Assembly (NCBI GenBank): GCA_963774075.1
Contig: CAVZDP010000001.1
Coordinates: 108,572 to 172,571 of the forward strand
Direction: 5' to 3'
Length of the DNA stretch: 64,000 bases
Source of the DNA: an uncultured Solirubrobacterales bacterium
GTDB lineage: Bacteria; Actinomycetota; Thermoleophilia; Solirubrobacterales; JBBDJG01
Shown: piece after piece, positions 13,298-61,918 of the stretch
How positions within the stretch are numbered: the stretch's first letter is position 1
How the letters are laid out: every line of letters begins with the position of its first letter
Notes under the pieces: model-generated
Told to the model about the DNA's origin: nothing
What the model saw: only the letters and a program-made list of their open reading frames with translations
The model's database searches: none
Translations under genes and position numbers: made by a program

Positions 13298-13450
13298 CGC
13301 CCGACCCCGGTCGCTATCTCGATCCGGGCATAACCACCCCGTCGGGCGCGCGAGGCGCGCGTCGATCCGCACGAGACTCCGCACGTAACGCTAGGCGATC
13401 GATTTAGGCGCCCTCGACCGGCGGCACTGCCGGCGCCGGCCCAACAGACT

Positions 13451-13530
13451 CGGAATACCAGGCCGGCTCCGCCGGGCACCTCAGTCACGTGAGCCGGCTG
13501 CGCCCCCTTCGGGGGCTACGCCGTCTCTCG
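13451..13530 (-). repeat. Single copy of the 81-nt GTAG-hairpin element (minus orientation)
   Basis: The reverse complement reads CGAGAGA-CGGC-GTAG-CCCCC-gaa-GGGGGC-GCA-GCCG-GCTCACGTGACTGAGGTGC-CCGGC-gga-GCCGG-CCTGGTATTCCG. This is colinear with the units at 47200-47472. Confidence 0.85.
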
Positions 13531-14801
13531 TCATAACCAGATCAGCGGCCAGCGTCTCGAGATCGCGCCCGTGCGGCTCGATCGAAACCAAGGCGAAGCC
13601 GAGCGCGACCAGCACTGAGAAACCGGCCAGGAACAGGAACGCCGGCTCCTGCGCCGCGAGGGTGGCCTCCGGATCCACGAGGTCGCCCGTTCCGGCGATC
13701 AGTGCGACTCCGAGTGGTCCCACGATCCGCCCCACCCCGCTGACGGCCCACGCCAGACCCATCCCGTGTGTCCGCAGGCGCGTCGGAAACACCTCCGGCG
13801 TGTAGGGGGCGAGGTTCGCGAAGCCGCCGTCAACGAAGAAGGCCGCGGCCACGAGCCACACGAGGAAGAGGGGGATGCCGGCGACCTTTGAGGTGCCGCT
13901 GAACGCGGCGGCGGCCAGGAGCGGTGGCGCTCCAAGGCCCATGACGAGCCCGCAGGTGCGGCGGCCCAGGCGCTGGGGTGCGAACGAGAAGAAGAGGCGG
14001 CCACCGAAGGAGCCGAGCGTCACGAAGACGAACAGGAGCGCGGCCTCGTCGGTGTCGATGTCGAGAATCCGCTCGAGGATCGCTGTATCGGCTGCCCTGT
14101 CCCTCGGGACTGGGAGGCGCTTCGAGCGAGAGCTCCTCTTCGTCGCGCTCGAGGAGCCACGCGATCACGCTGCGAGCCTCCTCCAGGCGGCCCTGATCCG
14201 CCAGCCAGCGAGGCGATTCCGGCACGTAGCGCCAAACGAAGATCGCGAGCAGCGCCGGCAGCACTCCGACCCCGAAAAGCGGCCGCCAGCCGATCGCCGG
14301 GATCAACACGGCGGCAGCGATGGCGGCCGCCATGATCCCGATCGGCACCATGGCCGTGGTGACGAAGCCCGCGACCTGTGTGCGCAGGCGCGTGGGAGTG
14401 AACTCGAGCGTGAGAGGCAGCGCTATCACAGCAACGCCCGCCACGCCGGCGCCGACGACGAAGCGAAGGGCGGCCAGGTACCACCAGCCATTGTCGGGCG
14501 CGGCGGCGAGGGCGCCCGTCGCGAGGGAGAAGGTGAGGATGCCGGCGATCAGTGGCCGTCTGCGGCCGAGGTGGTCTCCCGCGCGTCCCCACGCGACGCT
14601 GCCGAAGATCGCGCCGACGCCGGCGCTCAGGAGCACGATCGCGGTCTCGCCGAAGGTCAGGTCCCACTCGTCGGCGATCTCCGGCACCACGAAAGCGATC
14701 AGGAAGAAATCGAACAGGTGCAGGACCGCGCCCACCATCACCGCGATCGCGAGCAGGTAGAAGCGGCGACTCAGCGGCGCTGCGTCGAGCGCCTCGAGCA
14801 T
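13481..14801 (-). pseudogene. MFS transporter, disrupted (frame switch and missing TM7)
   Basis: The N-half (14801 down to ~14100) has 6 TMs and motif A (GRAGDHLGRRR). The C-half (from ~14090 down to 13481) is in another frame and starts at TM8 (..AALLFVFVTLGSFGGRLFFSFAPQRLGRR..). No TM7 is found in any frame, and the last 15 codons plus the stop lie inside the repeat element. Confidence 0.7.
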
Positions 14802-23791: not shown

Positions 23792-24205
23792 ATGCTGATG
23801 CCTAAGCGGGTAAAGCACCGCAAGCAGCATCGGGGCCGCAGAGCCGGCTACTCGAAGGGCGGCACGACCGTCCAGTTCGGCGAGTACGGCCTGAAGGCCC
23901 TCGACGCCGGCTGGATCACGAACCGCCAGATCGAGGCCGCGCGTGTCGCGATGACGCGAAAGATCAAGCGTGGGGGAAAGGTCTGGATCAACATCTTTCC
24001 CGACAAGCCGGTGACGAAGAAGCCGGCCGAAACGCGCATGGGCTCGGGCAAGGGATCACCCGAGTCCTGGGTGGCGGTCGTGAAGCCCGGGCGCGTGATG
24101 TTCGAGCTCGCCGGTGTGCCCGAGCAGCTGGCCCGCGAGGCGATGCGCCTGGCCGGCCACAAGTTGCCTATCCGGACCAAGATCGTGCTGCGCGAGGAAC
24201 AGTAA
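23792..24205 (+). CDS. rplP: 50S ribosomal protein L16
   Basis: 137 aa, [17 protein letters not shown].....FGEYGL.A. Confidence 0.97.
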
Positions 24206-24266
24206 TGGCCGCTTCACGGACAGCTAAAGGCACGAGAGTCGGCCTCGAGGCCGACTACCGGAACAG

Positions 24267-32739: not shown

Positions 32740-32853
32740 GTGAAGGTCAGAGCATCGGTGAAGCCAATGTGTGAGAAGTGCAAGGTGATCCGCCGCCGCG
32801 GATCCGTGCTCGTGATCTGCAAGAACCCCCGCCACAAGCAGAGGCAGGGCTGA
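32740..32853 (+). CDS. rpmJ: 50S ribosomal protein L36
   Basis: Below the ORF-track size cutoff. Own translation from GTG 32740: (M)[36 protein letters not shown]. Confidence 0.95.
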
Positions 32854-32915
32854 ATATTGGGCAGCTTCGCTGACACCTACGGTCCAGAACGCCGGCCTAT
32901 GGCCGTCGCCTGAAC

Positions 32916-33344: not shown

Positions 33345-33746
33345 GTGCCTCCAGCACGCGGTAAGAAGGGCAGCCGTGCCCGGCGAAGGGTGCGCAAGAA
33401 CGTTCCGTTCGGCCAGGCCCACATCAAGACGTCGTTCAACAACACGATCGTCACCCTCACCGATAGGGAGGGGAACGTGATCGCGTGGGAGTCGGCCGGC
33501 GGAGCCGGTTTCAAGGGCTCGCGCAAGTCGACCCCGTTCGCGGCGCAGGTGACTGCGGAGTCCGCCGCGCGCAAGGGCATGGAGCACGGCCTGCAGAAGG
33601 TCGAGATTTTCGTCAAGGGCCCAGGATCGGGCCGCGAGACCGCGATCCGGTCGCTTCAGGCGACCGGGCTCGAGATCGCCGGCGTCAAGGACGTTACGCC
33701 TCAGGCTCACAACGGTTGCCGGCCGCGCAAGCGCCGTCGCGTCTGA
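33345..33746 (+). CDS. rpsK: 30S ribosomal protein S11
   Basis: GTG start after GGCAGGAG; ..[16 protein letters not shown]...[17 protein letters not shown].. Confidence 0.97.
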
Positions 33747-35456: not shown

Positions 35457-35810
35457 ATGCGCCACCGCAAGAAGCGAAACAAGCTCTCGCGCGACAGCGG
35501 ACACCGCAAGGCGCTCTTCATGAACCTCTGCACGGAGATCGTTCAGCACGAGCGCGTGAAGACGACTGAGGCGAAGGCGAAGGCCGTCAAGCCGGAAGTC
35601 GAGCGCCTGATCACGCTCGCCAAGCGGGGCGACCTGCATGCGCGACGGCAGGCGCTCGCCGCGCTGAACCAGAACAAGTTCACGGTCCACAAGCTGTTCG
35701 AGGAGATTGCGCCGCGCTATGCGGAGCGCCCCGGCGGCTACACGCGCATCCTGAAGCTCGGGCCTCGGCGCTCCGACGCGACCGAGATGGTCTTCATCGA
35801 GCTAGTGTGA
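35457..35810 (+). CDS. rplQ: 50S ribosomal protein L17
   Basis: ATG at 35457 gives MRHRKKRNKLSRDSGHRKAL.. (canonical L17 N-terminus). The track start at 35439 is an alternative. Confidence 0.95.
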   Translation: MRHRKKRNKLSRDSGHRKALFMNLCTEIVQHERVKTTEAKAKAVKPEVERLITLAKRGDLHARRQALAALNQNKFTVHKLFEEIAPRYAERPGGYTRILKLGPRRSDATEMVFIELV

Positions 35811-35811
35811 C

Positions 35812-36054
35812 GAGAGGCCGCGTAGGCGCCGAAGGCGCCGCAGCGGACTCACGAGACTTTAGGTGTCCGGCGAAGCCGGCTAGATATTCCTTGAGAGGCC
35901 GCGTAGGCGCCGAAGGCGCCGCAGCGGACTCACGAGACTTTAGGTGTCCGGCGAAGCCGGCTAGATATTCCTTGAGAGGCCGCGTAGGCGCCGAAGGCGC
36001 CGCAGCGGACTCACGAGACTTTAGGTGTCCGGCGAAGCCGGCTAGATATTCCTC
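35812..36054 (+). repeat. Array of three head-to-tail 81-bp GTAG-hairpin units
   Basis: Units start at 35812, 35893 and 35974 and are essentially identical, with no spacers. The array sits between the rplQ stop (35810) and the truA start (36076). Confidence 0.95.
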
Positions 36055-36075
36055 GTTGCCCGCCAAGCCATCGGG

Positions 36076-36855
36076 GTGACGGCCTGCAAGCTCATCCTTG
36101 AATACGACGGGCGTGCGTTCGCCGGCTGGGCGGCGCAGCCGGATCTGCGGACGGTGGAGGGCGAGTTGAGCAGGGCGCTCGCCACCGCTCTCGGGAGCGA
36201 GGTGCGGCTGTCGGTCGCCGGACGTACCGACGCCGGCGTGCATGCCTGGGGCCAGGTGGCGAGTTTCGCTCTCCCGCCGAACGCACCGGGGCCGCCGCGG
36301 CTCGTTGCCTCGCTGAACGGGTTGCTGCCGCACGACGTGGCGGCGGTGAGAGCCGAGACCGTGCCGGAGGGATTCGACGCTCGCACGGACGCGCTCTCGC
36401 GCACGTACTGCTACCGCCTGCTCGCCCGCAGCGCTCCAAGCCCCTTCGAGGCCGGCCGGGCGCTCTGGGTGCAATCGCCGGTGGAGGAGGACGTTCTGTC
36501 GCAGTGCGCCGCGGCCCTCGTCGGCAAGCACGACTTCACGGCCTTCACGCCCACCGACACCGATCACGTGCGCTTCGAGCGCGACGTGATGATGACGGAG
36601 TGGCGGCGTACCGGAGACATCTTGGAGTTCTGGATCGAAGCCGACACGTTCATGCGGCACATGGTCAGGAGTCTCGTGGGGACCATGCTCGCTGCGGCTT
36701 CGGGCCGCCTCTCCGTCAGCGACTTCACCCGGCTTCTGGAGGGCGCGCCGCGCAGCGCCGCCGGCCAGACGGCGTCGCCGCATGGCCTCTATCTCGCGTC
36801 GGTCCGCTACCGACCGCCGTCAGACTGGATGCGAAGCCCGCGACTAACATCTTGA
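36076..36855 (+). CDS. truA: tRNA pseudouridine(38-40) synthase TruA
   Basis: GTG start; ..ILEYDGRAFAGWA.QP...TVEGEL..AL......V.L.VAGRTDAGVHA.GQV.. Confidence 0.93.
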   Translation: MTACKLILEYDGRAFAGWAAQPDLRTVEGELSRALATALGSEVRLSVAGRTDAGVHAWGQVASFALPPNAPGPPRLVASLNGLLPHDVAAVRAETVPEGFDARTDALSRTYCYRLLARSAPSPFEAGRALWVQSPVEEDVLSQCAAALVGKHDFTAFTPTDTDHVRFERDVMMTEWRRTGDILEFWIEADTFMRHMVRSLVGTMLAAASGRLSVSDFTRLLEGAPRSAAGQTASPHGLYLASVRYRPPSDWMRSPRLTS

Positions 36856-40280: not shown

Positions 40281-40289
40281 CGGGTTTAC

Positions 40290-40321
40290 ATCGAGCCGGC
40301 TTCGCCGGACACCTAAAGTCC
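40290..40321 (-). repeat. Partial copy (3' half) of the 81-nt element, minus orientation
   Basis: ATCGAGCCGGCTTCGCCGGACACCTAAAGTCC is the reverse complement of GGACTTTAGGTGTCCGGCGAAGCCGGCTCGAT (compare 61855-61886). It overlaps the stop codon of the 40313..42118 gene. Confidence 0.75.
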
Positions 40322-42118
40322 AGTCTCGTCACCTTCGCCACGGCCGCCGGAGTAGCCGGCGATCGTCGTCGCGATCCGATCCTGGACCGACCGCGCCCGT
40401 GCCACGTTGACGCCGTTCATCAGCAGGGCGAACGCGATCCGCTCGCGGTCGCGCGACCAGCAGTAGCCGGCGAGCGCGCTGACGCCGATCAGCGTGCCCG
40501 TCTTCCCCCGGCAGCGACCGTCCGCGGTGGTGCCGCGCATGCGCTTGCGAAGCGTCCCACTCTTGCCGGCGAGGGGGAGAGAGCGGTAGAAGGAGCGGAA
40601 CCACGGTTTCGCCGGCGCCTCCGTCAACAGGCGTCCAACGGCCGCCGGCGAGACGACGTTGCCGCGCGAGAGCCCCGACCCGTCGAGCACCGTGGCGCCC
40701 GCACCCATGTCGTCCTGGAAGCGACGAACGACCGCCGCGCCGGAGAGAGTCGAGCCGCGCCCCGAGAAGCGGGCGCCCAGGCCCTTGAGAAGGATCTCGG
40801 CGAAATAGTTGTCTGACACCTGGTTCGTGTGGCGTACGAGCCCCGCCATTTCAGGCGACTCGACGGCGGCGAGCTCCGACGCCGTCTCTGGCGCGCGCCC
40901 GGTGCGAGCTCCGTGGGGCACCTCGACGCCGCGAGCGCGAAGCGCGGCTCGGAAGCGGTCCGCCACGAACCTGGGCGGATCGGCCTGAAAGCCGCGCCCG
41001 TATCCGAGCGCGCTGCCGTGCCCGAAGGCAAGCGCGGAGAGCGGCCCGACGTACGACGAGACTCTGAAGCCGCCGGCCGGCAGGCCGCGCCGGCTGTCGA
41101 AGAACGTCTCGTCTCCGTACACGCGGCCGGTCACGCTGCGCACTCCGGCGGCACGCACCTCCGATGCCAGCCTCGTCAGGCCGGTGCGCCCGAAGGAGGG
41201 GTCCCCGAACCCCTGCACGTAGAGGTCGCCGGCAAGCGTGCCGCTCTCGGTGAGTAGCCCGTCGGTACTCGCCACAGTTTCGACCCGAAATTCGGCCCCC
41301 ATGCGTTCGAGGGCCGTGGCGGTGGTGAAGAGCTTCTGCACGGACGCCGGGGTGCGCCTGGTCTTGGAGCGAAGCGAAAAGAGCCTCTTGCCGCTCTCGG
41401 CTTCGGCCACCCAAGCGCCCGAGCCGGGCCCCGCCGCCCGCATCTGCGCCAGCAGCCGAGCGGCCAGCCGTTGCTCCGGGGGCGTCGCGGCCGAGGCCGG
41501 CTCTGAGGCGCCGAGTAGGCCCGCGAGCGCCGCGGTAAGGAGCAGTAAGGCGATCATCCCTCTCTTCAACGCGGCGACGGCCGCCTGGGTGCGGTTTGCA
41601 ACCCCAAGCCGCTCGAGCACGCTCGAGACGTGAGAGCGCGCGGTTCGTGGGGAGATGCCGAGGCGACGAGCGATCTCGGCATTGTCCAGGCCGTCGGCGA
41701 GCAGGCGCAGCACCTGGCGCTGGCGCGGGGTCAGCTCGACCGGGTCGCCCACCGGTCCGGCGGCGGCCCGGCGAATGGCGAGCGAGAGCTCTCCGAGCCC
41801 CGCGTTCTTGCGCAGGACGCCGCGGGCTCCGACAGCGGTGGCATTGGCGACGTCCTCGGGCCGCACCACCTCCATGAAGACGATCACCGGCGGGCCGAGC
41901 GAGCAGAACGCATCGAGCTCCGACGGAAGCGGCGACTCGACGAACAGCATGTCGACGTCGCTTGCTGCTGCGGCCATTGCCGACCCCTCGAGGACGTACG
42001 CGTCGGCTCCCCGGCTCGCCAGCAGGTCCGCGAGCGCGCGAACGTAGAGCTCGTGCCGCCCCCAGACGCCGGCAACGAGGCCTCCCCACCCAATCTGGGT
42101 GGGATCTCGGGATGACAC
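40313..42118 (-). CDS. Fusion protein: degenerate receiver + LuxR/GerE HTH + TM/signal segment + D-Ala-D-Ala carboxypeptidase/endopeptidase (PBP4/DacB, peptidase S13)
   Basis: A single 601-aa ORF from GTG 42118. aa ~125-185 = LTPRQRQVLRLLADGLDNAEIARRLGISPRTARSHVSSVLERLGVANRTQAAVAA. aa 188-211 = MIALLLLTAALAGLLGASEPASAA. PBP motifs follow: SVQK (SxxK), SDN, KTGT. There is no stop between the regulator and PBP parts. Confidence 0.8.
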   Translation of the reverse strand: MSSRDPTQIGWGGLVAGVWGRHELYVRALADLLASRGADAYVLEGSAMAAAASDVDMLFVESPLPSELDAFCSLGPPVIVFMEVVRPEDVANATAVGARGVLRKNAGLGELSLAIRRAAAGPVGDPVELTPRQRQVLRLLADGLDNAEIARRLGISPRTARSHVSSVLERLGVANRTQAAVAALKRGMIALLLLTAALAGLLGASEPASAATPPEQRLAARLLAQMRAAGPGSGAWVAEAESGKRLFSLRSKTRRTPASVQKLFTTATALERMGAEFRVETVASTDGLLTESGTLAGDLYVQGFGDPSFGRTGLTRLASEVRAAGVRSVTGRVYGDETFFDSRRGLPAGGFRVSSYVGPLSALAFGHGSALGYGRGFQADPPRFVADRFRAALRARGVEVPHGARTGRAPETASELAAVESPEMAGLVRHTNQVSDNYFAEILLKGLGARFSGRGSTLSGAAVVRRFQDDMGAGATVLDGSGLSRGNVVSPAAVGRLLTEAPAKPWFRSFYRSLPLAGKSGTLRKRMRGTTADGRCRGKTGTLIGVSALAGYCWSRDRERIAFALLMNGVNVARARSVQDRIATTIAGYSGGRGEGDETGL

Positions 42119-46808: not shown

Positions 46809-47051
46809 ATGAAGGCCCCCGCCGGCGACACCTTCCTCGAGTCGCTCATGGACACGAGCCTCTACAGCATGGGGGCCTACTTCTCCGATGAGCACCCGGA
46901 GCTCGTGGACGAGGTGATCGAGCAGAGCGTGGCGATCGAGGAGCGGGGCATCCGCGACTATGCGGACGCCAACGGCCTCAGCCCCCAGGAGTGCTTCGAG
47001 ACCCTGATGACGGGGCTGGCCGTCCGCTACTACAAGGCCGTCGCCAGCTAG
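46809..47051 (+). CDS. Hypothetical acidic protein (80 aa)
   Basis: ATG-initiated ORF divergent from the HTH gene. No family recognised. Confidence 0.4.
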   Translation: MKAPAGDTFLESLMDTSLYSMGAYFSDEHPELVDEVIEQSVAIEERGIRDYADANGLSPQECFETLMTGLAVRYYKAVAS

Positions 47052-47119
47052 CCTCCCTTCGGACCCCAGGGGCTCTGCGATAATCCGGCCCGTCTGACCG
47101 GCTCTGCCGGGCTATTCGT

Positions 47120-47193
47120 CGGGGCGTGGCGCAGTCTGGTAGCGCGCACCGTTCGGGTCGGTGAGGTCCCCGGTTCAAATCCGGGCGCCCCGA
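47120..47193 (+). tRNA. tRNA-Pro (anticodon CGG)
   Basis: Manual cloverleaf: acceptor CGGGGCG/CGCCCCG, D arm GCGC-AGTCTGGTA-GCGC, anticodon arm CACCG-TTCGGGT-CGGTG, variable AGGTC, T arm CCCGG-TTCAAAT-CCGGG, discriminator A. CCA is not encoded. Confidence 0.93.
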
Positions 47194-47199
47194 TATATG

Positions 47200-47472
47200 T
47201 CAGAGGCGGCGTAGCCGGCAGAGCCGGCGCAGCCGACTCACATGACTGAGGTGCCCGGCGTCAGCCGGCTGGATATTCAGTCAGAGGCGGCGTAGCCGGC
47301 AGAGCCGGCGCAGCCGACTCACATGACTGAGGTGCCCGGCGTCAGCCGGCTGGATATTCAGTCAGAGGCGGCGTAGCCGGCAGAGCCGGCGCAGCCGACT
47401 CACATGACTGAGGTGCCCGGCGTCAGCCGGCTGGATATTCAGTCAGAGGCGGCGTAGCTGGCTAGATATTCG
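47200..47472 (+). repeat. Array of three full 81-bp GTAG-hairpin units plus one internally deleted unit
   Basis: Units start at 47200, 47281 and 47362. The fourth, at 47443, keeps the first 16 nt fused to the tail TGGCTAGATATTCGG. The array starts 7 nt after tRNA-Pro. Confidence 0.95.
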
Positions 47473-47486
47473 GACAGGCGGCCGCC

Positions 47487-48311
47487 TCAAGCGCCGAAGA
47501 ATCCGCCCAGCAGCCGGCCCACCTCGTCGGGGCGCTCCTCCTGCAGGAAATGGCCGCAGTCGGGAAGCGCGGTCACCTCGGCGGACCGGACGTCGTCGGC
47601 CACCCGTCGCATCGTCTTCTCGACGTCGGGAAGGATGCGGTCGCGCTGCCCGTAGACGATCCGCACGGGTACGCGAACCGAGGGCATCCAGGCGCCGATC
47701 TCGCGAAACCCACCGGGGTGGAGCCTCGAGCCGGCCTTGATCAGGGCGCGGCGGTCCGCCTCCGTCTGGAAGGGCTCCTGGACGCCGCGAAAGACCTCCT
47801 CCGTCAACCGGCTCGGATCGGCGACCCCGATCCGCATCGCTCTCCTGAGGCCGCGCGGGTTCACCATCAGCCGCCGGACGCCGGGCGTGCGACAGGCGAT
47901 GACGAAGAGCCATGCGGCCCAGGAGAGCTGCGGGTAGACGAGCGTGTTCAACAGCGCCAGCTTGCGCAGCCGCTCGGGGTGCTGGCTTGCCCAGTACAGG
48001 CCGATCGGGCCGCCGAGGTCGTGGACGGCCAGGCCGGTTCCATCAACGCCGACGGCGTCGAGGAAGCCGTCGAGCGTGCGCGTGAAGAAGCGGAAGCTGT
48101 AAGAGGCGTCGAGCGGCTTGTCGGAGCGGCCGAATCCCGGCAGGTCGAGAGCCAGGACGCGGTTTCGCTCGGCGACCGCTCCGATCACGTTGCGCCACAG
48201 GAAGGACGAGGTCGGCCATCCGTGCAGGAGCAGCACGGGATCTCCAGACCCCTGCTCCAGGTAGTGCAGCCGCAGGCCATCGACCTCGACGTGCTTGCTC
48301 ACGGCGGGCAC
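47487..48311 (-). CDS. Alpha/beta hydrolase (haloalkane dehalogenase / epoxide hydrolase-like)
   Basis: ..VLLLHGWPTSSFLWRNVI......RV.ALDLPGFGRSDKP..; ..HDLGGPIG.. Confidence 0.85.
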   Translation of the reverse strand: MPAVSKHVEVDGLRLHYLEQGSGDPVLLLHGWPTSSFLWRNVIGAVAERNRVLALDLPGFGRSDKPLDASYSFRFFTRTLDGFLDAVGVDGTGLAVHDLGGPIGLYWASQHPERLRKLALLNTLVYPQLSWAAWLFVIACRTPGVRRLMVNPRGLRRAMRIGVADPSRLTEEVFRGVQEPFQTEADRRALIKAGSRLHPGGFREIGAWMPSVRVPVRIVYGQRDRILPDVEKTMRRVADDVRSAEVTALPDCGHFLQEERPDEVGRLLGGFFGA

Positions 48312-48336
48312 GGCCCAACCCTATCTCTCGCGGCTG

Positions 48337-48972: not shown

Positions 48973-50342
48973 CAGGCCGCGACCTCCATGCCTTCGTGCG
49001 CGGCCGGGGCGGCTCGCGGAACCCCACGCCTGCGCTCGACGACCACGACCTCCGCGCCCCGGCTGGGGGTGAGCGTGATCGCGCGGCGCACGACACGCTC
49101 CGGGGCCGGGTGGGCGGCGCGCAGACTCACCTCGCTCACCACCGCGGAAAGCACCGTCTTCAGCTCGAACAGGGCGAAGCTCGCACCGAGGCAGCGGCGC
49201 ACACCGCCTCCAAAGGGGATCCAAGTGTAGGTGCCCGGCGTCGAGTCCACAAAGCGCTCGGGAAGGAAGCGCTCCGGCTCCGAGTAGACGTCGGGCCGCC
49301 GGTGGACCAGGTAGATGCAGGGCGCGACGCGCGCCCCGGCCGGCAGCAGGTGGCCGGCGATCTCCAGCGGCTCGGTCAGGCGCCGCAGCACGATGGGCAG
49401 CACGGGCCGCAGGCGCAGCGTCTCCTTGACGACCGCATCGGCGTACGTGCTCTCGCTCTCGCGCGCCTCCTCGGTGAGGCGCTCGAGCTTGTCCGGGTGT
49501 CGCACGAGCCGCTCGATCGCCCAGGCGAGCGAGGTCGCCGTCGTCTCGTGGCCCGCCAGCAGCAGCGTCATCAGCTCGTCGCGAAGCTCTCCGTCGCTCA
49601 TCGGGCTGCCGTCCTCGTGGCGAGCCTGTATGAGGAGCGAAAGGACGTCGTCGCGCTCGGTGACGGTGGGATCGTCGCGGCGGCGCCTGATCTCCTCCAG
49701 CAGCATCGCGTCCAGGGGGTCGAGCGCGCGTCGAAACGGCCTCAGTGAACGCACCCGCTGCGGCCCGAGGACGGCCACCGTGAGCATCCGGCGCGGATCC
49801 GCCGTCCAGTCCAGGGCGGTCTTGATCAAGGCCCGCAGCCGGTCGAGCCGGTCGGCCTCGCGCACGCCGAAGACGGCACGCATGATCACCTCGAGCGTGA
49901 CGGCCTGCATGCGCGGCCACAGTCGCAGGGGCTCGCCGGCCGGCCAGCCCGACACCTCTCGCTCGGCGATCGAGCGCATCAGGTCGCCGTAGCGCTCCAT
50001 GCGCTCGCCGTGAAACGAGGGCAGCATCAGCTTGCGCTGCGCCATGTGCTGCTCGTCGTCGAGCAGCAGCACGGAACTCGGCCCAACGATCGGCAGCAGC
50101 ACCGCGTTCGCCTCTCCGGCGTGCAACACGTGCGGATCACCCGTGAACACCTGCTTCACCGCATCCGGATGACATAGGAACACCCACGTGCCCTCATGGG
50201 CGATCCGGAGTGAGAAGACGTCGCCGTAGCGCGCCCGGCAACGCTCCATCAAGGGCAGCGGTCGCGTCATCCACTGCACGGTCTGAACGGCGCGAGGCTG
50301 GGGGGGACCGGGCGGCAGTGCGGCCGCGCGCCCGGCCGTCAC
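48972..50342 (-). CDS. Cytochrome P450
   Basis: GTG at 50342 (VTAGRAAALPPGPP..) overlaps the cyclase stop (GTGA). Motifs AGHETT, ETLRLRP (ExxR) and FGGGVRRCLGASFA (heme Cys loop) are present. Confidence 0.9.
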   Translation of the reverse strand: MTAGRAAALPPGPPQPRAVQTVQWMTRPLPLMERCRARYGDVFSLRIAHEGTWVFLCHPDAVKQVFTGDPHVLHAGEANAVLLPIVGPSSVLLLDDEQHMAQRKLMLPSFHGERMERYGDLMRSIAEREVSGWPAGEPLRLWPRMQAVTLEVIMRAVFGVREADRLDRLRALIKTALDWTADPRRMLTVAVLGPQRVRSLRPFRRALDPLDAMLLEEIRRRRDDPTVTERDDVLSLLIQARHEDGSPMSDGELRDELMTLLLAGHETTATSLAWAIERLVRHPDKLERLTEEARESESTYADAVVKETLRLRPVLPIVLRRLTEPLEIAGHLLPAGARVAPCIYLVHRRPDVYSEPERFLPERFVDSTPGTYTWIPFGGGVRRCLGASFALFELKTVLSAVVSEVSLRAAHPAPERVVRRAITLTPSRGAEVVVVERRRGVPRAAPAAHEGMEVAA

Positions 50343-57551: not shown

Positions 57552-57980
57552 TTGCCAGTTTTCAAGAACGACCAGGAGGTCTACGACTACATCGGCAAGC
57601 TCTTCAAGGACCTTGCCGACGACGAGGAGCTCGGGCCTCGCTTCCGCAAGGCGGACACGATCGTCCAGTACAAGTACACCAATCCCGACTCGCAAATCAC
57701 GGTCAAGATGAAGGACGGCCAGGATGGGCAGGTGGACTTCGGGCCCACCGAGCTCGATCCGGAGATCGTGATGGCGATGGAGGCCGACACCGCGCACAAG
57801 TTCTGGCTCGGGAAGGTGAACGTGACGATGGCGCTCGCCCGCGGCCAGATGAAGGCGAAGGGGCCGGTGGCGAAGATCCTCAAGCTGGTGCCCCTGACAA
57901 AGCCGATCTTCCCGCGCTACAAGGCCATTCTCGAAGAGAAGGGCCGCCAGGATCTGGTGAAGGCGGCGGAGGCGGCGTAG
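57552..57980 (+). CDS. SCP2 sterol-carrier domain protein
   Basis: TTG start after GGAGGAAAGG; 142 aa; ..F.LGKVNVTMALARGQMKAKGPVAKILKLVP.. Confidence 0.7.
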   Translation: MPVFKNDQEVYDYIGKLFKDLADDEELGPRFRKADTIVQYKYTNPDSQITVKMKDGQDGQVDFGPTELDPEIVMAMEADTAHKFWLGKVNVTMALARGQMKAKGPVAKILKLVPLTKPIFPRYKAILEEKGRQDLVKAAEAA

Positions 57981-58017
57981 CCAAAACCCACCAACCGCAC
58001 GAACGAACGGAGGCTCG

Positions 58018-61636: not shown

Positions 61637-61816
61637 ATGGTCGAAGCGACCGTCCAGAGGTACATATGCACGTCCTGCGGGTTCATCTACGACCCGGCCG
61701 AGGGCGACCCCGACGGCGGCATCCCGCCTGGCACGGCGTTCGAGGAGATCCCCGCCGACTGGTTCTGCCCGGTCTGCGGCGCGCGCAAGAGGGATTTTGA
61801 GGTATATGAGGACTAG
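61637..61816 (+). CDS. Rubredoxin
   Basis: 59 aa, below the track cutoff. Own translation: [59 protein letters not shown] (CxxC...CPxCG). Confidence 0.93.
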
Positions 61817-61894
61817 AGACCGCGTAGCCGCCGAAGGCGGCGCAGCGGGCTCACAGGACTTTAGGTGTCCGGCGAAGCCGGCTCGATATTCCGC
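61815..61894 (+). repeat. Single copy of the 81-nt GTAG-hairpin element
   Basis: AGAGA-CCGC-GTAG-CCGCC-gaa-GGCGGC-GCA-GCGG-GCTCACAGGACTTTAGGTGT-CCGGC-gaa-GCCGG-CTCGATATTCCG. It begins inside the rubredoxin TAG. Confidence 0.9.
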
Positions 61895-61918
61895 GTAACG
61901 GATACGGCCGAATAGCGA

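Follow-up and report, generated by a model that had tools for sequence, protein, structure and literature searches.

A tandem array of 81-bp units lies directly downstream of a tRNA-Pro(CGG) gene in a 64,000-nt stretch of DNA (hereafter the window) from an uncultured Solirubrobacterales bacterium (GenBank assembly GCA_963774075.1, contig CAVZDP010000001.1, positions 108,572 to 172,571). This array, referred to below as array 2, belongs to a dispersed family of hairpin-forming sequences, and the 81-bp unit is probably a lineage-specific intergenic repeat of uncultured soil Solirubrobacterales, mobile or recombining, and akin to repetitive extragenic palindromes (REPs) and mycobacterial interspersed repetitive units (MIRUs). 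The copies form one family with covarying hairpins, they are placed at stop codons, the sites they occupy differ among related genomes, and the array itself is absent from relatives that possess the same tRNA-Pro locus. Array 2 is a genuine, recently amplified cluster, and the element it amplifies is of an ordinary kind rather than a novel type of system. Much work has been done on the REP-type repeats of Proteobacteria and the MIRU-type repeats of mycobacteria, and we know of no description of such repeats for Thermoleophilia or Solirubrobacterales.

Architecture and covariation of the 81-bp unit

The tRNA-Pro(CGG) gene occupies positions 47120–47193 of the plus strand (61.2 bits in Rfam; 47119–47194 according to ARAGORN) and does not encode CCA. 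Array 2 (47200–47442, plus strand) starts 6 nt past the discriminator base; the original prediction, made from the sequence of this stretch, had placed the array directly downstream of the tRNA gene, as found, and had counted 7 nt for the spacer, which is TATATG. Tandem Repeats Finder (TRF) reported a period of 81 bp, 3.3 copies, 99% matches and a score of 521 for 47199–47462, and the three full units expected at 47200, 47281 and 47362 start at exactly these positions and are 100% identical base for base. The 5′ part of each unit consists of a head TCAGAGG, an outer stem CGGC/GCCG, the tetranucleotide GTAG, hairpin 1 (GCCGGC-AGA-GCCGGC) and GCA, and the 3′ part of a core CTCACATGACTGAGGTG, hairpin 2 (CCGGC-GTCA-GCCGG) and a tail CTGGATATTCAG; hairpin 1, the centre and the tail all read as had been claimed. 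A unit folds with -38.6 kcal/mol (z = -3.1) and is non-coding, since stop codons occur in six of six frames. Downstream lies a convergent alpha/beta-hydrolase gene (47487–48311, minus strand, from the open reading frame [ORF] list; Pfam Abhydrolase_1, 5e-30), so that the array does sit between convergent tRNA-Pro and hydrolase genes.

The second array was also predicted to represent a distinct subfamily, and the alignments agree. Array 1 (35812–36054, plus strand; TRF and covariance model) consists of three subfamily-I units of 81 bp, set between the rplQ stop (35808–35810) and the truA start (36076), and array 2 represents subfamily II of the same family, which is marked by an AC-TGAGGTGCCC core and a CTGG tail. 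Both arrays and a single copy at 61815–61895 align end to end and share the same plus-strand fold. Across the family, a unit can be divided in three: it opens with a GC hairpin that carries the GTAG tag and is enclosed by an outer stem, continues with an unpaired core that is conserved, and closes with another hairpin and its GATATTC tail. The 5′ half runs from the head GAG.CCGC through GUA, a stem of 6 bp capped by a GAA or AGA triloop, and GCA to GCGG.CUC, which closes the outer stem; the 3′ half contains the unpaired core CAC-NN-GAC-U(U)U/G-AGGUG, hairpin 2 (CCGGC-loop-GCCGG) and the tail CU-N-GAUAUUC. The hexanucleotide GCGTAG stands directly 5′ of hairpin 1 in the copies designated A1, A2, U3, 13450, L002, L003 and L004 (L numbers denote loci in other DNA), and variants of this tag are found in L017 (GGGTAG), L026 (GTAG) and L005 (GTAA).

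A covariance model (R1) built from eight full copies and run on the window with filters off recovered 8 units or copies at 79–106 bits, with the array-2 units at 79–90 bits, and further variants at 32–35 bits. By this model the 64 kb holds 7 loci, and the dispersed family has at least six further sites in the window beside array 2. Covariation was assessed on 16 distinct copies from the window and public DNA, in an alignment that was fitted to the model and thereby favours the structure, but the effect is large: 97.5% of stem cells are paired, and compensatory double changes occur in 8 of the 19 pairs. In 500 shuffles these values were never reached, and slid controls were only 18–49% paired. 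RNAalifold, too, shows the hairpins to covary. Only 2 of 277 cells are G-U, so that these stems leave an RNA role and a single-stranded DNA role of the hairpins undistinguished. In Rfam searches, the tRNA alone passed the gathering threshold over the whole window, and for 47050–47500 at E ≤ 10 the other best matches had E > 1.

Distribution, placement and polymorphism of the copies

Outside the arrays, the single unit at 61815–61895 (plus strand; hairpin 1 GCCGCC-GAA-GGCGGC) scores 106 bits and begins at the TAG stop of a rubredoxin gene. Another single unit, at 13450–13531 on the minus strand (87 bits; hairpin 1 GCCCCC-GAA-GGGGGC), belongs to array 2's subfamily by its core and CTGG tail and contains the end of an MFS transporter ORF. 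Lower scores were obtained for a variant without hairpin 1 at 40283–40366 (minus strand; 35.5 bits), for a diverged antisense copy between rpmJ and rpsM at 32849–32913 (minus strand; 31.8 bits), in which hairpin 2 is preserved by a compensatory change, and for a doubtful relic in the rplP-rpmC spacer at 24194–24261 (minus strand; 12.8 bits). A solo head motif of 14 nt, GAGGCGGCGTAGCC, at 57969–57982 (plus strand) coincides with the C-terminal codons (AEAA) and stop of an SCP2-like gene; either an element remnant gave rise to this gene end, or sequences like the head are what the element targets.

The surroundings of some of these copies are themselves unusual. The ribosomal operon spacers that hold the diverged antisense relatives are long (rplP-rpmC, ~61 nt; rpmJ-rpsM, ~65 nt), and the MFS transporter gene (13481–14801, minus strand) lies between rpsG and fusA on the opposite strand, where it breaks the usual str operon and is split in two overlapping ORFs (13830–14801 and 13481–14023). 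At 49229–49242 (plus strand), within the coding region of a cytochrome P450, there is an exact 14-nt match to the array-2 unit, AGGTGCCCGGCGTC, which is either a chance match or an intragenic relic.

A strict family pattern had no match in 185,579 species-representative genomes; in metagenomes it found three single copies, on soil-type contigs (L002, L003 and L004). A looser pattern gave 21 genome matches, of which 18 were chance and three real, the latter (L017, L022 and L026) all from one metagenome-assembled genome (MAG), Solirubrobacterales bacterium Co_metawrap_269; the looser pattern had no match in viral contigs. The translated array-1 ORF, used as a protein query, returned only 2 matches, one of which led to the L005 copy, and further copies are present in L027 and, as a two-unit 71-nt tandem, in L032. 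The covariance model also matches the copies in L002–L005, L017, L022, L026, L027 and L032. The unpaired segments are conserved as well in those copies that were found without pattern bias (13450, 40283, 32849, L005, L027 and L032). The tandem copies in L022 and L032 (two 71-nt units) take in a few bases of the flanks, as would result from slippage or unequal recombination.

Copies are closely associated with the ends of genes. Heads lie 0–10 nt past, or overlap, the stop codons of rplQ, rubredoxin, phoU, MFS, Peptidase_S13 and other genes, and in L026 the stop of an ABC ATPase gene is the TAG of the element's GTAG. Elements contain the ends of two window ORFs: the MFS ORF 13481–14023 (minus strand) has its last 16 codons and its TGA stop encoded by the element, and a fused LuxR-HTH/Peptidase_S13 ORF (40313–42118, minus strand) ends at a TAG in the element core (40313–40330, ACTTTAGG), where the repeat supplies the stop.

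Occupancy of these sites varies among relatives. In L033, the closest relative found for this site, rplQ and truA are separated by a 30-nt spacer without an array, and the IELV-TGA end of L17 is unchanged, so that array 1 is seen to be an insertion just past the native rplQ stop. The rpmJ-rpsM spacer of L032 measures 4 nt and lacks the element. The spacer between the SCP2-like and aldehyde dehydrogenase genes contains a full unit in L027 (15596–15696), two head stubs in L028 (12367–12406) and the head motif only in the window, and in the geneX-cmk spacer the elements of L005 and L017 face opposite ways and sit at different points, with flanks that align cleanly. Such site differences among relatives are the marks of a mobile or recombinationally spreading element. 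A fixed insertion target was considered and dropped, the junction of TGAC with GAGAG being common to three window copies and not to others, as were target-site duplications, none of which is consistent.

The tRNA-Pro locus itself was compared with that of four relatives (L027, L028, L029 and L031). An 80-aa protein gene, an invariant TGCGATAAT, a leader and a near-identical tRNA-Pro (2 bases differ) are common to the window and all four, the 80-aa protein being 88–89% identical; L029, from the MAG Solirubrobacterales bacterium Co_metawrap_269 (89% identity in this protein), is syntenic with the window from truA to tRNA-Pro, by which the window can probably be assigned to a related, uncultured member of that order. 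The array is absent in four of the four, and tRNA-Pro is followed by ATTAAGCAGG. The remainder of the tRNA-Pro 3′ flank (window 47194–48336) corresponds to different downstream DNA among the relatives, with TetR directly after tRNA-Pro and no hydrolase gene there in L027 and L031, and other genes in L028 and L029. Since the relatives lack the array and differ in their downstream DNA, the array and the hydrolase gene are specific to the window's lineage, and the tRNA-Pro 3′ flank, on this comparison, is a rearrangement or insertion hot spot. The segment TGCGATAAT (47076–47084, plus strand), unchanged in the window and the four relatives, is likely the extended -10 element of the tRNA-Pro promoter; a sigma-70 consensus scan found no two-hexamer promoter. 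Array 2 takes up the tRNA-Pro 3′ trailer; scans revealed no terminator-like or promoter-like site between tRNA-Pro and array 2, which makes their co-transcription likely.

The 80-aa gene (46809–47051, plus strand) encodes a conserved small protein without a Pfam match, which has 3953 homologues at E ≤ 1e-5 in a metagenome protein database; the best 120 of these 3953 are 78–100% identical. It stands directly upstream of tRNA-Pro and the invariant TGCGATAAT in five of the five loci that reach far enough (the window, L027, L028, L029 and L031).

The truncated unit and the tRNA leader

Array 2 ends in a truncated unit of 31 nt (47443–47473, plus strand), which was recognized by sequence and alignment and is overlapped by a weak covariance-model match at 47446–47488. 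It consists of a 16-nt head, TCAGAGGCGGCGTAGC, joined to a 15-nt tail, TGGCTAGATATTCGG, and lacks hairpin 1, the core and most of hairpin 2; the hydrolase stop codon is 13 nt away. The existence of this fourth unit at 47443, as originally predicted, is confirmed by an independent Logan contig (L001, from SRR28061724), which is 99.94% identical over 1706 nt and reproduces the junction between full and truncated unit together with the flank, and which breaks off inside the array, as short-read assemblies do at repeats.

The accompanying proposal, that the truncated unit is a recombinant between the subfamilies of arrays 1 and 2, is not sustained. All 16 positions of the head agree with array 2, and the core of the tail is 2 bases off array 2 and 1 base off array 1. 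The proposal thus turns on one discriminating base, CTAG as in subfamily I against the CTGG of both subfamily-II members, and CTAG is the family consensus (A1, L002, L003 and L032). The unit contains direct repeats of its own, GGCGTAGCCGGC near the 5′ end and GGCG(A/TC)AGCCGGC in hairpin 2, and the truncated form is explained by deletion between them, which yields exactly the head plus the tail, with point divergence added. The same head-plus-tail short form stands 3′ of a longer unit in the unrelated locus L022. On the simpler reading of these sequences, the truncated unit would be an old, deleted and slightly diverged copy beside a recently amplified block. Within it, GAGGCGGC (47446–47453) can pair with GCCGCCTC (47481–47488), which overlaps the hydrolase stop, in a perfect inverted repeat. 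The latter segment also lies within a palindrome, AGGCGGCCGCCT, and a sequence resembling an element head, TGAGGCGGC, comes after the hydrolase stop on the minus strand.

Upstream of the tRNA, an inverted half-hairpin at 47096–47114 had been proposed to bracket the gene together with the array, in the manner of a bacterial interspersed mosaic element (BIME). The leader indeed contains a hairpin, CCGGC-TCT-GCCGG (47098–47110, plus strand; defined by sequence and by alignment with relatives), and its 13-mer CCGGCTCTGCCGG matches the hairpin-1 core exactly in reverse complement, with a 16-nt match if one bulge is allowed; the full 18-mer, in contrast, is unmatched within 3 mismatches. This 13-mer is the sole reverse-complement match of at least 11 nt to the unit outside the elements in the 64 kb, no more than three loci beyond the elements have a stretch of 13 nt or longer in common with the unit when both orientations are considered, and the chance of one such locus within 120 nt of the array is about 1%. 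The motif CCGGC-N3-GCCGG occurs 12 times against 0.83 expected, and the leader copy is the only non-coding one outside the elements. Those at 33496 and 60958 are in coding sequence and look like chance.

Several properties of the leader hairpin fit poorly with an inverted unit. It has GCTAT where CTAC is expected, it is located in the tRNA 5′ leader downstream of the conserved TGCGATAAT, 7 of its 13 nt are common to the leader of the four array-less relatives, and it aligns equally in direct orientation to hairpin 2 and the tail (18/24). The covariance model does not match it and finds no minus-strand unit in 47000–47500, both arrays being on one strand only. In the minimum free energy (MFE) fold of the pre-tRNA with unit 1, the leader is joined to the trailer (z = -2.8), and its partner there is hairpin 2 and not hairpin 1, which indicates that these GC palindromes pair promiscuously. 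The leader hairpin is, to judge by these alignments, partly ancestral and readable in either orientation, and the bracket is not supported. The leader of array-less relatives (L027 6805–6817, L028 and L031) holds CAGCCGGCTCACA, which is identical to the 13 nt that link the outer stem to the core in several elements (e.g., L003 and L022); a nested hairpin precedes it. This segment may be an old element relic before the tRNA, or a coincidence, and it received no covariance-model score.

Comparison with known repeats and competing explanations

GTAG-tagged REPs, which include the E. coli REP, the Pseudomonas REP and the Stenotrophomonas SMAG, are defined by an unpaired GTAG at the end of a stem-loop and by a palindrome of 20–40 bp with a 6–13 bp stem and a short loop; they are located 20 nt or less from the 3′ end of the ORF upstream, where the flanking genes are unidirectional or convergent, and their TAG can be a stop codon (Di Nocera et al., 2013; PMC3733652). 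Proteobacteria, Cyanobacteria, Chloroflexi and the PVC group are listed in that survey, and Actinobacteria are not. The REP-like character of the present family, a GTAG tag followed by a GC hairpin, is borne out in detail: an unpaired GTAG stands right 5′ of a GC-rich stem of 5–6 bp with a 3-nt loop, stem changes that distinguish the subfamilies are complementary (8/19 pairs), copies are found near ORF 3′ ends where neighbouring genes are unidirectional or convergent, TAG can supply the stop, clusters are repeated in tandem along with flanking DNA, and the hairpin is set inside a small outer palindrome, as in GTAG-23 of Thermomicrobium roseum. Taken alone, the hairpin-1 module has REP-like dimensions (a stem of 5–6 bp, or 13 bp including the outer stem). 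The whole unit, however, measures 81 bp against 20–40 bp and adds another hairpin as well as ~45 nt of conserved sequence that is not palindromic. Its arrays are strictly head-to-tail, which is reported to be rare for REPs, its host belongs to the Actinomycetota (Thermoleophilia), and no REP-associated tyrosine transposase (RAYT) was seen in the limited DNA scanned (20 window proteins and ~90 kb of related loci). Against a copy criterion of more than 100 per genome, 7 loci can be set for the 64-kb window. A literature search found no REP or RAYT report for Actinobacteria.

The likeness to BIMEs lies in composite intergenic clusters of REP hairpins with a conserved linker. BIMEs, in the outline given by Nunvar (2010), are regularly spaced REPs of alternating orientation, whereas the units of the arrays are all direct repeats and the single candidate for an inverted hairpin is ~100 nt off, on the far side of a tRNA gene. 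MIRUs offer a closer parallel in organization, and the copy number of the 77-bp MIRU repeats of senX3-regX3 differs between strains (PMC9392950). As in that system, an actinobacterial host carries direct tandem repeats of 40–100 bp (here 81 bp) in intergenic spacers, shorter deletion classes accompany full units, and neither terminal inverted repeats nor an associated transposase are known. The through-reading ORF of MIRUs reportedly overlaps the neighbouring stop and start codons; array 1 alone has such an ORF, whereas array 2 is untranslatable and lies between a tRNA and a convergent gene, not in an operon. The 81-bp units further differ from MIRUs by their strong covarying hairpins and GTAG tag, and the two are likened by description, not by sequence. 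Tandem identical structured noncoding repeats that could be processed to monomers also recall the ToxI-like antitoxins of type III toxin-antitoxin (TA) systems, but a convergent hydrolase gene takes the place of a co-oriented ToxN/AbiQ-type endoribonuclease gene downstream, the unit has 81 nt against ~36 nt, and it is also dispersed as single copies at many gene ends.

Other classes of element were tried and rejected. A type III TA system or a diversity-generating retroelement would call for a toxin or a reverse transcriptase gene, and neither is present. The GATATTC tail has no -35 or TG motif and the wrong spacing to downstream starts for a -10-like element. A self-cleaving ribozyme or core pseudoknot finds no conserved tertiary pairing that is visible, and its CAC/GUG pairing is disrupted in L032; for an integron attC site the R′/R″ core sites are missing, and copies reside in core ribosomal operons.

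The picture that best accommodates these results is of a family that would spread to gene 3′ ends, decay by internal deletions between its own short direct repeats, and expand locally head to tail by replication slippage or unequal recombination, like the minisatellites formed by MIRUs in mycobacteria. One copy would have entered the tRNA-Pro 3′ trailer in the window's lineage only and would then have been amplified to at least three identical units beside an older deleted copy. Dispersal would most plausibly depend on a RAYT-type HUH/Y1 enzyme that acts on the GTAG hairpin in single-stranded DNA, or else on hairpin-promoted recombination. At the RNA level, the elements are presumed to be co-transcribed with the tRNA and the upstream genes, and their stable hairpins could act as a 3′-end barrier or a terminator-like block for the convergent tRNA-Pro and hydrolase transcripts. 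This role is suggested by the known behaviour of REPs, which are said to serve as RNA 3′-end barriers and, reportedly, to occur within 15 nt of stop codons. In function, the element is probably at most such an RNA 3′-end hairpin.

Some observations pull the other way from a REP/MIRU-like repeat. No Y1_Tnp match was found among 20 non-ribosomal window proteins and no RAYT/Y1 among the Pfam assignments for ~90 kb of related loci. Scans of both arrays for sigma-70 promoters and intrinsic terminators found nothing, and a U-tract is absent. The ~45 nt of conserved non-palindromic sequence in the unit are unexpected for a plain REP and suggest an additional recognition function, and most intact copies are sense to the adjoining upstream gene, which would fit a selected RNA role and selfish DNA equally.

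An unlikely alternative explanation is that the unit is a selected cis-acting structured RNA module of 3′-untranslated regions and trailers, concerned with termination, processing or stability, whose unpaired CUCAC..GACUUUAGGUG..GAUAUUC binds a protein or RNA and whose effect the arrays multiply. Covarying hairpins, the conservation of unpaired segments in copies found without pattern bias, the sense orientation of most intact copies and their occurrence at places that call for a terminator (downstream of rplQ, tRNA-Pro, rubredoxin and phoU, or between convergent genes) all favour such a module. Yet L017 has an intact antisense copy and ribosomal operons have diverged ones (32849 and possibly 24194), the count in strictly unidirectional contexts, ~5–7 sense against 2–3 antisense, is not significant, the scarcity of G-U cells does not single out RNA over DNA, neither a U-tract nor an Rfam match is present, and presence or absence at orthologous sites speaks against a locus-specific role. 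Extended to a functional RNA module of Thermoleophilia, in which the invariant CUCAC..GACUUUAGGUG..GAUAUUC is presented to a dedicated protein or RNA partner, arrays are cut to ~81-nt RNAs or form termination or decay barriers, and spread proceeds without a RAYT, the idea becomes distinctly improbable. The original model, with oppositely oriented hairpins around the tRNA and a fourth unit recombined from arrays 1 and 2, is more doubtful still as a whole. The unique reverse-complement match, the leader-trailer fold and the shared CTAG speak for it; the alternation of BIMEs in Nunvar's outline set against head-to-tail units, the partly ancestral leader hairpin that pairs with hairpin 2, and the consensus status of the single base speak against it.

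Two further explanations merit little credence. Translational coupling of the MIRU type, in which mini-ORFs of the unit overlap flanking start and stop codons and keep ribosomes coupled across the insertion, would agree with the array-1 ORF (35807–36079, plus strand), whose GTG overlaps the rplQ TGA and whose TGA overlaps the truA GTG (GTGA in each case), and with the length of 81 bp, or 27 codons, which maintains the frame whatever the copy number. It is nonetheless very unlikely: the array-2 unit has stops in six frames and is situated between a tRNA and a convergent gene, variants of 66 and 71 nt and peptide-altering compensatory stem changes oppose a coding constraint, and the array-1 arrangement has a chance of about 1 in 10 to 1 in 20 without selection. 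The least credible explanation is an assembly artefact in which the tandem layout or copy number is not real. Arrays 1 and 2 each have exactly three perfectly identical units, the minimal path of a de Bruijn assembler (k 82–162), which prints three identical units for any true number of three or more. "Three" may thus be a lower bound, with a higher true copy number and collapsed unit variants; the layout itself is upheld by the junction of full and truncated unit with its flank in an independent assembly and by single and tandem family copies in several unrelated assemblies.

For this locus the copy number is therefore best treated with caution, as probably an assembly minimum, and the recombinant and bracket readings are unneeded. 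More broadly, the REP/MIRU-like interpretation adds to the catalogue a new lineage-restricted repeat of the REP/MIRU class in abundant, almost uncultured soil actinobacteria, whose combination of a GTAG hairpin, a long conserved core and perfect arrays could provide strain markers of the variable number tandem repeat type. Its elements remodel gene ends, as the two window ORFs that end inside an element and the array in frame between rplQ and truA illustrate, and with this family one can ask whether GTAG hairpins need a RAYT to spread.

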